NCBI RefSeq assembly: GCF_044324785.1
Contig: NZ_CP172127.1
Direction: 5' to 3' (one strand)
Length of the DNA stretch: 64,000 nt
From: Escherichia coli
Lineage (GTDB): Bacteria; Pseudomonadota; Gammaproteobacteria; Enterobacterales; Enterobacteriaceae
A program made the translations under genes and the position numbers. Each line of letters begins with the position of its first letter. Within the stretch, counting starts at the first letter, position 1. Below the pieces are notes generated by a model. The model was not told the origin of the DNA. It saw only the letters and a list, made by a program, of their open reading frames with translations, and ran no database searches. Of this stretch, positions 1,842 to 51,113 are shown piece by piece.

Positions 1842-4274
1842 ATGACCACACTGAAACTGGATACGCTCAGCGACCGCATTAAAGCGCACAAAAATGCGCT
1901 GGTGCATATTGTGAAACCGCCGGTCTGTACCGAGCGCGCGCAGCACTATACTGAGATGTATCAACAACATCTCGATAAGCCGATCCCGGTACGTCGCGCG
2001 CTGGCGCTGGCGCATCACCTGGCGAATCGCACCATCTGGATCAAGCACGATGAGTTGATCATTGGCAACCAGGCAAGCGAAGTTCGCGCCGCGCCGATCT
2101 TCCCGGAATATACCGTCTCCTGGATCGAAAAAGAGATTGATGATCTGGCGGATCGTCCGGGTGCTGGTTTTGCGGTGAGCGAAGAGAACAAACGTGTTCT
2201 GCATGAAGTGTGCCCTTGGTGGCGCGGTCAGACGGTACAGGATCGCTGCTACGGCATGTTTACCGATGAGCAAAAAGGTCTGCTGGCGACCGGAATCATT
2301 AAAGCGGAAGGCAATATGACCTCCGGCGATGCGCACCTGGCGGTGAATTTCCCGCTACTGCTGGAAAAAGGTCTTGATGGTCTGCGCGAGAAAGTAGCGG
2401 AACGTCGCTCGCGCATCAACCTGACGGTGCTGGAAGATTTGCACGGCGAGCAGTTCCTGAAAGCGATTGATATCGTGCTGGTGGCAGTCAGTGAACACAT
2501 TGAACGTTTCGCTGCCCTGGCGCGTGAAATGGCAGCCACTGAAACCCGCGAAAGCCGTCGCGATGAACTGCTGGCGATAGCAGAAAACTGCGATCTTATC
2601 GCCCACCAGCCGCCGCAGACTTTCTGGCAGGCGCTGCAACTGTGCTACTTCATCCAGTTGATTTTGCAGATCGAATCTAACGGTCACTCGGTATCGTTTG
2701 GTCGTATGGACCAGTATCTCTACCCGTACTATCGCCGCGACGTTGAACTGAACCAGACACTGGATCGTGAACACGCCATCGAGATGCTGCATAGCTGCTG
2801 GTTAAAATTGCTGGAAGTGAACAAAATCCGCTCCGGCTCGCACTCGAAAGCCTCTGCGGGAAGTCCGCTGTATCAGAACGTCACCATTGGCGGACAAAAT
2901 CTGGTTGATGGTCAACCAATGGACGCGGTGAATCCACTCTCTTACGCGATCCTCGAATCCTGCGGTCGCCTGCGTTCTACTCAGCCTAACCTCAGCGTGC
3001 GTTACCATGCAGGAATGAGCAACGATTTCCTCGACGCCTGCGTACAGGTGATCCGCTGCGGCTTCGGGATGCCGGCGTTCAACAACGACGAAATCGTCAT
3101 CCCGGAATTTATTAAACTCGGTATTGAACCGCAGGACGCTTACGACTATGCAGCGATTGGTTGTATCGAAACCGCCGTCGGTGGCAAATGGGGCTATCGC
3201 TGTACCGGCATGAGCTTTATCAACTTCGCCCGCGTGATGCTGGCGGCGCTGGAAGGCGGGCGTGATGCCACCAGCGGCAAAGTGTTCCTGCCACAAGAAA
3301 AAGCGTTGTCAGCGGGTAACTTCAACAACTTCGATGAAGTAATGGACGCATGGGATACGCAAATCCGTTACTACACGCGTAAATCAATCGAAATCGAATA
3401 TGTCGTCGACACCATGCTGGAAGAGAACGTACACGATATTCTCTGCTCGGCGCTGGTGGATGACTGTATTGAGCGAGCGAAAAGTATCAAGCAAGGCGGC
3501 GCTAAATATGACTGGGTTTCTGGCCTGCAGGTCGGCATTGCTAACCTCGGCAACAGCCTGGCGGCAGTGAAGAAACTGGTATTTGAACAGGGCGCGATTG
3601 GTCAGCAACAGCTGGCTGCCGCACTGGCGGATGACTTCGACGGCCTGACTCACGAGCAGCTGCGTCAGCGGCTGATTAACGGTGCGCCTAAGTACGGCAA
3701 CGACGATGATACTGTCGATACGCTGCTGGCTCGCGCTTATCAGACCTATATCGACGAACTAAAACAGTACCATAACCCGCGCTATGGTCGTGGTCCGGTT
3801 GGCGGCAATTATTACGCGGGTACGTCATCTATCTCCGCTAACGTACCCTTTGGCGCGCAGACGATGGCAACGCCGGACGGGCGTAAAGCCCACACCCCGC
3901 TGGCAGAAGGCGCTAGTCCGGCCTCCGGTACTGATCATCTTGGCCCTACTGCGGTCATTGGCTCAGTGGGTAAACTGCCTACGGCCGCGATTCTCGGCGG
4001 CGTGTTGCTCAACCAGAAACTGAATCCGGCAACGCTGGAGAACGAATCTGACAAGCAGAAACTGATGATCCTGCTACGCACCTTCTTTGAAGTGCATAAA
4101 GGCTGGCATATTCAGTACAACATCGTTTCCCGCGAAACGCTGCTGGAAGCGAAAAAACATCCGGATCAGTACCGCGATCTGGTAGTGCGTGTCGCGGGTT
4201 ATTCCGCCTTCTTCACTGCGCTCTCTCCAGACGCACAGGACGATATCATCGCCCGTACTGAACATATGCTGTAA
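1842..4274 (+). CDS. ybiW: Glycyl radical enzyme (PFL-like, 810 aa)
   Basis: C-terminal glycyl-radical fingerprint RVAGYSAFF (Gly codon at 4197..4199) and active-site GCIE (3159..3170). Recognised as YbiW/PflF. Confidence 0.93.
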
Positions 4275-4336
4275 CTCTTCCGCCCGGCGGCCACCGTCGC
4301 CGGGCCAAATCATTCACATCATCAATTTCATCCTCG

Positions 4337-4349
4337 CTTTCATTCGAAA
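4337..4349. promoter_or_regulatory. CTTTCATTCGAAA box, copy 2, upstream of ybiV
   Basis: Exact 13-mer shared with 889..901 and with the reverse complement of 5358..5370. Confidence 0.35.
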
Positions 4350-4419
4350 TATAATTTGTGCTCTGCGTCACATTGTTATTACACTGTTACGGTTTCATTT
4401 TCGAGCCAGGAGCACACCT

Positions 4420-5235
4420 ATGAGCGTAAAAGTTATCGTCACAGACATGGACGGTACTTTTCTTAACGACGCCAAAACGTACAACCAACCACGTTTTATG
4501 GCGCAATATCAGGAACTGAAAAAGCGCGGCATTAAGTTCGTTGTCGCCAGCGGTAATCAGTATTACCAGCTTATTTCGTTCTTTCCTGAGCTAAAGGATG
4601 AGATCTCTTTTGTCGCGGAAAACGGCGCACTGGTTTACGAACATGGCAAGCAACTGTTCCACGGCGAACTGACCCGACATGAATCGCGGATTGTTATTGG
4701 CGAGTTGCTAAAAGATAAGCAACTCAATTTTGTCGCCTGCGGTCTGCAAAGTGCATATGTCAGCGAAAACGCCCCCGAAGCATTCGTCGCACTGATGGCA
4801 AAACACTACCATCGCCTGAAACCTGTAAAAGATTATCAGGAGATTGACGACGTACTGTTCAAGTTTTCGCTCAACCTGCCGGATGAACAAATCCCGTTAG
4901 TGATCGACAAACTGCACGTAGCGCTCGACGGCATTATGAAGCCGGTTACCAGTGGTTTTGGCTTTATCGACCTGATTATTCCTGGCCTGCATAAAGCGAA
5001 TGGTATTTCGCGGTTACTGAAACGCTGGGATCTGTCACCGCAAAATGTGGTAGCGATTGGCGACAGCGGTAACGATGCGGAGATGCTGAAAATGGCGCGT
5101 TATTCCTTTGCGATGGGCAATGCTGCGGAAAACATTAAACAAATCGCCCGTTACGCTACCGATGATAATAATCATGAAGGCGCGCTGAATGTGATTCAGG
5201 CGGTGCTGGATAACACATCCCCTTTTAACAGCTGA
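4420..5235 (+). CDS. ybiV: HAD-family sugar phosphatase (Cof-type, 271 aa)
   Basis: [17 protein letters not shown]... contains the HAD DxDGT motif. Recognised as YbiV/SupH. Start trimmed from 4189, with AGGAG 8 nt upstream. Confidence 0.9.
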
Positions 5236-48636: not shown

Positions 48637-49050
48637 CTAATGAAAAAAACGCGTATGCCTTTGCCAGACAAGCGTTATCGCTATTGCTGCAAGAATCCCA
48701 AAGAAGCCGATAAAATAGTAATAGAGTGTTAATGCACCTGTAACAGCGCAACGAACCGGACTCCACAATTCTTCGCTATGGCATTTTCCTGCCAGTTCAA
48801 GGAGCTTATTTCGTCCATGCGAGATAATGCCTGACCATAAAACAATCATTAAGCAACTTATTACCCAAATGGGCCGTTCACTCATTAATGCGGCATTCAC
48901 GATGATCACCAGGGCCAACCCTGTCAACGTCATCATAATGATAAAACGGTGAGAACCAGGATCAACATTAAATAATAAACCGGCCAGCATACTGATTAAA
49001 AACATCGCGCCCGCAGTGCTGAACACAAGGATAATGGCAGATACAGGAAG
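48637..49050 (-). pseudogene. ybhM: ybhM, C-terminal 137 codons, separated from its 5' part by an IS insertion
   Basis: (L)PVSAIILVFSTAGAMFLISMLAGLLFNVDPG...VWQRHTRFFH continues the BAX-inhibitor-1-family frame begun at 51113. The ORF-track N-terminus MGSLARQDGEQS is read-through from the IS end. Confidence 0.8.
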
Positions 49051-49240
49051 TGACTGCTCCCCGTCCTGTCGGGCGAGGCTTCCCACTTCTTAAGCCGCAA
49101 CCGTCTGTGTGACGGATTTATGCTGGCCTCCATGGGCAGAAACGACGAGTCCCGCCGCTTGTAATTCCAGTATGCCCTTGCGTTTGATGTTGAGCGCCGC
49201 GTTGATATCGCGGTCATGTTCAACTCCACACTCTGGACAC
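49035..49240 (-). ncRNA. Predicted TnpB omega-RNA (reRNA): a scaffold overlapping the tnpB 3' end and RE, plus a 16-nt guide read from the flank (49050..49035)
   Basis: Inferred purely from the established TnpB/omega-RNA architecture. The 5' boundary is a guess. The guide would be CUUCCUGUAUCUGCCA. Confidence 0.4.
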
Positions 49241-50259
49241 TGCCAGATGCGCTTACGTAATGGCATCTCCGACATTTTGTGACCGCAGCAGTGGCAGGTT
49301 TTCGAACTGGCGAACCATTGATCCAGTTTCACCAGATGCACACCTTTCTCTGCTGCTTTATATTCCAGTTTTGTGATGAATCCAGACCATCCAGCATCGC
49401 CTATCGCACGAGCCAGATGGTGATTTTTCATCATATTTGCCGTTTTCAATTTCTCGACAATTACCGCTTGGTTTTCGTCAACAATTGCGCGAGATAACTT
49501 GTGCTGGAAATCGGCACGGGCACTGGCTACCCGTTCGTGAACGGCTGCAAGTTGTATTCTGGCTTTGCGCCTGTTTGCGCTCCCTTTTTTCTTACGGGAC
49601 AGTGCTTTCTGCTTCCGGCGCAGGTTGCGACTTGCATTGATTAGGTGGCGGGGACTGGCAATTTTATTGCCGTCCGATTTGATGACAAAATGCGCCAGCC
49701 CCATATCCAGCCCTGTCACATTTGATATCAGTGCGGGCTTTGCCGGCGCTTCCATCCCGTCGTCACAGAGTAACGACGCGTAGTATTTCCCGGTTGCGCT
49801 GCGGCTCAACGTGATACTTTTCAGCATTCCCGTAATTTCACGATGTAAACGCGCTTCAATCGGCAAGATTTTCGGTATTTTTATCGCACCATCAAGGACT
49901 TTTATGCCAACACAATGATAGCTCGATTGTCTGCCGTGTTTACTTTTAAAGGTAGGTTTACCTGCTTTCAGTTTCGGATTGAAAAAGTTAGAAAAAGCCA
50001 CGTCGAGGTTAATTACCGCCTGCTGCAACGCAATAGAATCATATTCTTTAAGCCATCCATACCGGCGGGATTTCTTCGCCACTGCAAGCAGTGGTTTGAG
50101 GTCTTTACGCGGGTTTAAATTTACGCGGTGCCGCTGGTAAGAATGTTTCTTGATATGCAGAGCTTTGTTGTACGCAAAACGCACTGCACCGAACTGGGCG
50201 TTGATAAATTCAGCCTGTTCTGGTGTCGGGTAGATGCGTACTTTTGTTGCTCTTAACAT
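49090..50259 (-). CDS. tnpB: TnpB (IS605 OrfB-family RNA-guided RuvC nuclease), 389 aa
   Basis: RuvC-I GLDMGL, RuvC-II VIVEKL, RuvC-III HDRDINAALNI and zinc finger CHCCG...CPECG are all present, with no frameshift. Confidence 0.9.
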   Translation of the reverse strand: MLRATKVRIYPTPEQAEFINAQFGAVRFAYNKALHIKKHSYQRHRVNLNPRKDLKPLLAVAKKSRRYGWLKEYDSIALQQAVINLDVAFSNFFNPKLKAGKPTFKSKHGRQSSYHCVGIKVLDGAIKIPKILPIEARLHREITGMLKSITLSRSATGKYYASLLCDDGMEAPAKPALISNVTGLDMGLAHFVIKSDGNKIASPRHLINASRNLRRKQKALSRKKKGSANRRKARIQLAAVHERVASARADFQHKLSRAIVDENQAVIVEKLKTANMMKNHHLARAIGDAGWSGFITKLEYKAAEKGVHLVKLDQWFASSKTCHCCGHKMSEMPLRKRIWQCPECGVEHDRDINAALNIKRKGILELQAAGLVVSAHGGQHKSVTQTVAA

Positions 50260-50315
50260 AATCAGCGCTCATTGATATAATGCTTTTATTTTAACACTTT
50301 AGGTGAATATATCAA

Positions 50316-50741
50316 TTGAGTAATCATGATGATTTACTGGCGGGATTTCTCCGCAAACGACACAGTGTCAGTAAGCTGGTTGTGCACCTTATTTTTACGA
50401 CAAAGTATCGACGCAAACTATTCGACAGTCAGATGATCGCTCAGTTGCGTGAGGCTTTTGGCTCCGCTGCGGCAAAGCTTGAATGCGAAATTATTGAGAT
50501 GGACGGGGAGCCAGACCATGTACACCTGCTGGTGGCCTACCCGCCAAAACTGGCGGTCAGTGTGATGGTCAATAATTTAAAATCGGTATCATCACGTTTG
50601 CTACGCCAGCAGAACGCGCATTTACGTATGCAGAGTAAAACGGGGCTTTTGTGGTCGAGATCGTACTTTGTCTGTAGCACCGGAGGGGCAACGATTGAAA
50701 CGCTCAGAGCCTACGTTCAGAGTCAGTCAACACCTGATTGA
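50316..50741 (+). CDS. tnpA: IS200/IS605-family Y1 (HUH) transposase TnpA, 141 aa with TTG start
   Basis: HUH motif DHVHLLV and C-terminal catalytic Tyr context TLRAYVQSQ. AGGTGA lies 7 nt before the TTG. The hairpin AAAGCCC-tgc-GGGCTTT plus T-run (50747..50764) follows the stop. Confidence 0.85.
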   Translation: MSNHDDLLAGFLRKRHSVSKLVVHLIFTTKYRRKLFDSQMIAQLREAFGSAAAKLECEIIEMDGEPDHVHLLVAYPPKLAVSVMVNNLKSVSSRLLRQQNAHLRMQSKTGLLWSRSYFVCSTGGATIETLRAYVQSQSTPD

Positions 50742-50813
50742 TCTTTAAAGCCCTGCGGGCTTTTCGCCTTATATCCCCGCCCGCATTGGGCGAGGGTTTA
50801 CGGCGTTTTTCGC

Positions 50814-51113
50814 TAAACTTGCAACGACAATCGCCACCAAAGAGAGTAAAAACAGATATATTACGCCTGCGATGGCGGCATTTATCTTGTTGATATCCTT
50901 ACTTAAGCCATACATACAAAGTAATAATAACCCTATGGCGACATACATTGGTGGTGAATCATATTTGGTTGCCGTAATTTCGAGATACTTAGCTCCCCAG
51001 GCCAGTCCTGCGGTTGCCACCAAACCTAAAGCGGTAATGAGCCATATACCGTTTAATATCCTGGCCTCGTGCTGAAAATCTAATTTATTGCTGTTTTGCG
51101 AGTATGATTCCAT
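50814..51113 (-). pseudogene. ybhM: ybhM, N-terminal 100 codons
   Basis: MESYSQNSNKLDFQHEARILNGIWLITALGLVATAGLAWGAKY...IVVASL, after which the frame runs into the IS left end (AKNAVNPRPMRAGI*). Confidence 0.8.

Follow-up and report, generated by a model that had tools for sequence, protein, structure and literature searches.

An ISEc46 copy in Escherichia coli ybhM: corrected ends, and the TAM and guide predicted for its TnpB

According to our in silico analysis, a stretch of 64,000 nucleotides of Escherichia coli DNA (the window) carries an intact ISEc46 in ybhM, inserted 3' of TTAG without target duplication, whose predicted omega-RNA would direct the element's own TnpB to the donor joint left by excision. 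Taken as a whole, we regard this explanation as likely, if short of secure. The window element is an ordinary, uncharacterised member of a well-understood kind. A sequence-only reading of the same DNA had the concept right, and its coordinates are corrected here.

Much of this was already known: ISEc46 is catalogued, existing annotation calls its tnpB an RNA-guided endonuclease, and the donor-joint model has been published. The scientific weight of the finding is modest. What is new is a corrected, usable design, namely a predicted TAM (TTAG), a predicted guide (TTCCTGTATCTGCCAT) and a predicted scaffold at about 49189..49050. The 389-aa TnpB is native to E. coli, so that homing could be tested in its natural host; alleles of the 2013C-4282 type, which match, and of the K-12 type, which mismatch at guide position 10, are natural built-in controls.

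Element identity, ends and target motif

The insert is 1763 bp long (49050..50812, minus strand) and carries both an intact tnpA and an intact tnpB. The element's top strand is the window minus strand and, as the sequence-only reading had it, the sense strand of tnpB. In a search of complete E. coli genomes, copies named by PGAP matched the insert at 99.1–99.7% identity over all 1763 bases, and on these >99% identical elements PGAP gives the names “IS200/IS605-like element ISEc46” and “RNA-guided endonuclease InsQ/TnpB”. The features of the IS200/IS605 family are present: a Y1 HUH TnpA, a subterminal hairpin at each end and insertion 3' of a fixed motif. Terminal inverted repeats are absent, and the two ends differ (left CGAAAAAC..., right ...GCAGTCAC).

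The interrupted gene is E. coli ybhM; clsB and ybhN lie beyond one flank, ybhL and moaE beyond the other. Both flanks code for halves of a Bax-inhibitor-type membrane protein (Pfam) and are collinear with K-12 ybhM: the 5' fragment lies at 50813..51113 (minus strand; Bax1-I profile positions 3–87) and the 3' fragment at 48637..49049 (minus strand; profile positions 95–205).

The ends of the element were read from natural empty sites and from independent insertions. Natural empty ybhM sites read GCAAGTTTAG|TTCCTGTAT. On the sense strand, which is the window minus strand, uninterrupted K-12 ybhM reads GCAAGTTTAG|TTCCTGTATATGCC and a natural allele with the flank sequence of the window (L022) reads GCAAGTTTAG|TTCCTGTATCTGCCATTATCCTTGTG, while the window itself reads GCAAGTTTAG-CGAAAAACGCC...GGGAGCAGTCAC-TTCCTGTATCTGCC. 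The G at 50813 is therefore a flank base, and the C at 49050 is part of the element. The empty site equals the left flank plus the right flank with no base duplicated and none lost, so there is no target-site duplication.

The sequence-only reading had set both boundaries one base off, with the element at 49051..50813, a TTTA TAM and the guide CTTCCTGTATCTGCCA. The strings that it quoted are present (minus strand: ...GCAAGTTTA, with its last base at 50814, and CTTCCTGTATCTGCCA, at 49050..49035), its element is also 1763 bp long, and the window alone leaves the assignment of the G and the C ambiguous. However, four empty-site alleles (K-12, Combat11I9, 2013C-4282 and Z0117EC0005) have G, not C, after TTTA and before TCCTG (TTCC or CTCC), which already refutes this register; moreover, every copy ends in C, with a varying base after it, and G is kept 5' of every left end. 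The excision product GTTTA|CTTCCTG (GTTTACTTCCTG) expected from that register was found in none of the four natural alleles. We give this register next to no credence. The true end of the element thus differs from the one it assumed; the register falls, and the concept of a flank-derived guide stands. A test target of the type TTTA-CTTCCTG... would have TTAC at the TAM positions (−4..−1), and its guide would be one base out of register. It would therefore probably give a negative result, and an experiment built on it would probably fail for a trivial reason.

With the corrected ends, the seven independent ISEc46 insertions that we compared (in ybhM, the ybhL-moaE spacer, an IclR-family gene, ptrB-yebE, oppD, an Arm-type integrase gene and a prophage) all read NTTAG|CGAAAAAC...GCAGTCAC|N; their right flanks are unrelated, and position −5 varies. 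The insertion in the ybhL-moaE spacer, carried by strain AST215 (L002, locus 3337..5099), lies about 1.3 kb from the ybhM site and is an independent event.

We extended the comparison to 80 loci encoding TnpB relatives of 63–98% amino-acid identity in Photorhabdus, Serratia, Kluyvera, Aeromonas, Vibrio, Halomonas-type and other genomes. GTCAC forms the end of 66 of the 68 right ends, with unrelated sequence beyond. In 61 of 65 matches to the left-end core, TTAG stands 9–10 nt 5' of the core, next to 57 distinct flanks. In the window, the target motif 5'-TTAG-3' occupies 50813..50816 (minus strand), directly 5' of the left end, and the transposon-encoded TCAC, taken as the right-end cleavage site, occupies 49050..49053 (minus strand), with flanks diverging right after it. 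Insertion sites (7/7 for ISEc46, 57 distinct flanks in relatives) and the logic of the family lead us to predict TTAG as the TAM in place of TTTA; position −5 shows a mild preference for T. That the TAM equals the left-end target motif, as the sequence-only reading had assumed, agrees with work on ISDra2, in which the donor joint was also proposed as the target (PMC8612924), and on Geobacillus elements (PMC10055086). Our literature search found no characterisation of the ISEc46 TnpB or of a TTAG TAM; mentions of ISEc46 were found only in resistance-genome surveys, and the matches to “TTAG” referred to TtAgo. IS609 TnpB was purified in one screen, and no TAM for it was found in the passages covered.

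Each end carries a subterminal hairpin. The left one, CCCTCGCCC-AATG-CGGGCGGGG (50775..50796, minus strand), is kept in relatives; as DNA, the left end folds with z = −2.9, and none of 200 shuffles folds as well. The right one, CCTCGCCC...GGACGGGG (49059..49078, minus strand), coincides with the last helix of the predicted omega-RNA (helix 8) and has a C.A mismatch in the window copy. The DNA fold of the right end alone was not significant; the right hairpin has support from compensatory changes in the alignment of relatives. AAAC stands just before the left hairpin and is a candidate DNA guide for TTAG. Under the cleavage-site pairing rule of IS608, AAAC (left) and GAAG (right) 5' of the ISEc46 hairpins would fit TTAG and TCAC, respectively, and these two motifs are invariant among the ISEc46 relatives.

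In several Photorhabdus relatives, an insert with inverted ends (AGGGTGTCGCAAAAG…CTTTTGCGACACCCT) splits the loop of the left-end hairpin, apparently between copies of a repeated CAGTGCG. Its left junction was seen in L029 and L037 and its right junction in L026, L033 and L042. The insert resembles a small inverted-repeat element with the IS end as its target.

Coding capacity, predicted omega-RNA scaffold and guide

tnpA (50316..50741, plus strand) encodes a Y1 HUH transposase of 141 aa that matches the full Pfam Y1_Tnp profile (E 5.8e-39), with HVH and a C-terminal YVQSQ in the translation. On the opposite strand, tnpB (49090..50259, minus strand) encodes an RNA-guided nuclease of the ISDra2 type with 389 aa and matches to Pfam HTH_OrfB_IS605, OrfB_IS605 and Cas12f1-like_TNB. 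The protein aligns end to end with ISDra2 TnpB (8bf8, E 6e-75): D185, E269 and D351 align with D191, E278 and D361 of its catalytic site, and C322/C325 and C341/C344 (two CxxC pairs) with its zinc residues. The catalytic triad is intact and nuclease activity is predicted.

In the 56-bp spacer between the two genes, a promoter consensus scan found sigma-70-like matches facing both ways, each with an extended −10 TG: one upstream of tnpB (50288..50315, minus strand; 10/12) and a divergent one for tnpA (50253..50281, plus strand; 11/12).

At the other end of tnpB, an ORF of 149 aa (48637..49086, minus strand) has a GTG start inside the right end and continues into the ybhM 3' fragment; read-through from tnpB could yield a truncated YbhM fusion by way of this ORF. 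In six relatives (L026, L059, L062, L063, L065 and L069), the tnpB frame has no stop before the right end and extends into the flank, so that the insertion site determines both the last residues of the protein and its stop codon.

The sequence-only reading rightly placed the predicted omega-RNA at the 3' end of tnpB and the right end. An alignment of the element's terminal 200 nt, taken from the window and 47 relatives (48 sequences), yields a consensus structure with 34 pairs in 8 helices, and compensatory changes occur in 19 of these pairs. Paired cells reached 97.5%, compared with 33–52% when the partners were slid by 1–3 columns, and 213 cells were changed on both sides compared with 60 ± 8 in shuffles. 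The conserved helices lie at 49160..49052 and overlap the last tnpB codons. A covariance model built from the 47 relatives, leaving the window out, was then searched over the 64 kb. It gave a single match, at 49189..49050 on the minus strand (140 bits, E 1.2e-34), which stops exactly at the transposon end. The sequence-only reading had proposed a check with covariance models; it came out positive with this model and negative with the Rfam families, which between 48500 and 51300 and at E up to 10 gave chance matches only (snoU43, GNAS-AS1 and HgcC, all E >1), a result that is silent on the existence of the RNA. A single-sequence RNA fold of 49260..49034 was not significant (z = −1.8). The comparative data, which are strong, point to a structured scaffold encoded at the 3' end of tnpB and stopping at the transposon boundary, and a TnpB guide RNA in the window element is very likely.

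The covarying structure at 49160..49052 might instead act only in single-stranded DNA, as the right-end recognition site of TnpA. IS200/IS605 ends do function as DNA hairpins, and helix 8 is the hairpin expected for TnpA, with a similar one at the left end; as it doubles as this DNA hairpin, its covariation is not specific to RNA. However, helices 2–7 extend over 100 nt inward from the end, into the tnpB coding sequence, and have no counterpart at the left end, where the covariance model found no second match. The IS608 TnpA site consists of one subterminal hairpin and about 10–20 nt, and helices 2–7 reach far beyond that. In ISDra2, moreover, the same region co-purifies with TnpB as an RNA (PMC8612924). 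We therefore consider a structure acting in DNA alone very improbable, and keep to the reading of an RNA scaffold.

Two further features near the guide were set aside. Pairing of the guide with an upstream CUGGCAG is specific to this insertion and was taken as chance. A terminator-like site past the guide (49028..49005, minus strand) belongs to a class no more frequent here than in shuffles and was not used.

The predicted guide consists of the first ybhM bases past the right end, starting with the T at 49049 and reading downward. At a length of 16 nt, borrowed from ISDra2 (PMC8612924), it is TTCCTGTATCTGCCAT (49034..49049, minus strand), which replaces the CTTCCTGTATCTGCCA of the sequence-only reading; 20 nt would reach 49030. 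The empty ybhM of strain 2013C-4282, GTTTAG|TTCCTGTATCTGCCATTATCC..., equals the joined flanks of the window from −12 to +100 around the junction. This includes TTAG and the whole guide, and the allele is a perfect match to the TAM plus guide. In the common K-12-type allele, TTAG is followed by TTCCTGTATATGCCAT, with A for C at guide position 10 and further differences at positions 21 and 23. A third empty-site allele has C at guide position 1.

In the 2013C-4282 allele, the TAM abuts sequence complementary to the guide, as it should in a donor joint. This is true by construction: the guide is copied from the right flank, the left flank ends in the TAM, and excision without a scar brings the two together. 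The match holds no information beyond the element boundaries, and a chance test is inapplicable to it. Elsewhere in the window, we found no TTAG followed by the guide (≤3 mismatches) or by a 12-nt seed (≤2 mismatches); the sole match of the off-target scan was the occupied site, which has TCAC instead of TTAG.

Proposed homing and history of this copy

We propose that tnpB would be transcribed on the minus strand, and that the last ~110–140 nt of the transcript (from 49189 or 49160 to 49050) would fold into the omega-RNA scaffold. The transcript would continue into the flank, giving a guide that starts with TTCCTGTATCTGCCAT at 49049. Precise excision by TnpA from one strand would leave one daughter chromosome with the donor joint GTTTAG|TTCCTGTATCTGCC; across ybhM, the predicted excision junction reads GTTTAGTTCCTG. 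This joint would present the TAM (TTAG) and a perfect target, TnpB with its omega-RNA would cut there, and recombination with the sister copy would restore the element. That excision recreates a TAM and target was the concept of the sequence-only reading and is that of the published model. For RNA production, guide length, TAM-dependent cleavage and repair-mediated retention, we infer from homology to the TnpB proteins of ISDra2 and Geobacillus. For the Geobacillus elements, it has been demonstrated that TnpB increases retention in the presence of active TnpA (PMC10055086).

One NCBI draft assembly matches 7.2 kb of the window at 100% identity, and at least 21 draft assemblies carry the ybhM insertion; GCA_014185105.1 is one representative of this lineage. 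A search of the complete E. coli collection (5,426 genomes) did not find the insertion. A 100% identical ISEc46 copy occupies a prophage site in another assembly (L017), so this variant has moved recently. Together with the ybhM insertion in at least 21 assemblies, the identical prophage copy indicates that the ISEc46 variant is mobile and yet also kept.

This variant carries two G-to-A changes on the minus strand, at 49121 and 49064, which turn conserved G:C pairs into A.C in helix 6 and C.A in the right-end hairpin (helix 8). Both changes are also present in L017–L019. G stands at both positions in most other E. coli copies read (L002–L006 and L010) and in a Kluyvera relative (L082), while L007 and L012 have the change at 49121 only. 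As these variant-specific changes break pairs in two helices, the TnpB–omega-RNA of the window copy might be weak or inactive, and its retention in the lineage would then reflect rare excision and not RNA-guided homing. Some natural TnpBs are indeed inactive in assays, such as IS608 HpyTnpB in the assay of the Geobacillus study (PMC10055086). On the other hand, the copy encodes a full-length protein whose catalytic triad is intact, A.C mismatches are mild, and the 100% identical variant at a second site means that the ends at least still work for TnpA. We judge a weak or inactive copy unlikely, although it is the most probable of the alternatives, and favour an active TnpB that would home to its donor joint.

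Next to the right end, we rejected the substitutions at 49040, 49029 and 49027 as repair scars made by the element or as escape mutations. Over 300 nt, the most similar empty site departs from the window at these three positions only, all within 23 nt of the right end. Empty sites of 13 E. coli genomes have the same three bases, which identifies a natural mosaic ybhM allele. For comparison, the window diverges by about 2.5–3% from Combat11I9 over 19 kb and by 2–4% from K-12, and ybhM alleles differ by up to ~7% over 600 nt.

One assembly (L019, GCA_040038515.1, locus 2444..4210) has an ISEc46 copy whose left flank is the ptrB-yebE site (…CATTGCTTAG|) and whose right flank is ybhM (|TTCCTGTATCTGCC, then ybhN and clsB). 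This is either recombination between two ISEc46 copies or an assembly chimera. If both copies are in direct orientation, as we presume from the gene orientations in K-12, it would be a duplication junction. There is a slim chance that it is a scar, in which TnpB cut at the ybhM donor joint and repair used an ectopic ISEc46 copy. If that were true, large chromosomal rearrangements or duplications between ISEc46 copies in natural E. coli would be a product of the guide RNA system. As TTAG is present at every left end, a chimeric copy of this sort would retain its own donor joint as a target.

Comparison with known systems

The closest well-studied system is ISDra2 of Deinococcus radiodurans, whose TnpB (PDB 8bf8, 8exa and 8h1j) has the three-domain architecture, the D-E-D triad and the zinc-finger cysteines in common with that of ISEc46. 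In ISDra2, a right-end RNA of ~150 nt co-purifies with TnpB and carries ~16 nt of flank (PMC8612924). As predicted for ISEc46, its scaffold overlaps the 3' end of tnpB and stops at the right end, and its guide comes from the flank. The two elements differ in TAM (TTAG, predicted, for ISEc46 and TTGAT for ISDra2) and in the length of TnpB (389 and 408 aa), and tnpA of ISEc46 is divergent from tnpB, unlike that of ISDra2.

The ISGst elements of Geobacillus stearothermophilus (Meers et al., PMC10055086) follow the same logic, with scarless excision by TnpA, a donor joint made of TAM and flank, and nuclease-driven retention. That study likewise used homologous insertion-free sites in related strains. 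Host and motifs are other than in ISEc46, and retention was measured there whereas we infer it for ISEc46.

IS608 and IS605 of Helicobacter pylori resemble ISEc46 in their Y1 HUH TnpA, in their subterminal hairpins and in insertion 3' of a tetra- or pentanucleotide without duplication, and IS605 also has divergent tnpA and tnpB. Their target motifs are TTAC for IS608 and TTTAA for IS605.

Nearer to ISEc46 stand the IS609/InsQ-type elements of Enterobacterales, and the relatives of 63–98% amino-acid identity described above share TTAG, GTCAC and the predicted scaffold with it. About 120–170 E. coli plasmid records hold tnpB relatives of 79–84% nucleotide identity that match only from the start of tnpB to the right end. 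In none of eight such matches did a tnpA lie under the match, and in two the neighbours were an antirestriction protein and a late promoter-activating protein. These plasmid relatives look like solo units of tnpB and guide RNA.

Closest of all are the other ISEc46 copies, with >99% nucleotide identity, at the ptrB-yebE, IclR, oppD, ybhL-moaE and prophage sites. The window copy is set apart from them by its site in ybhM and by the two G-to-A changes in the helices of its predicted scaffold.
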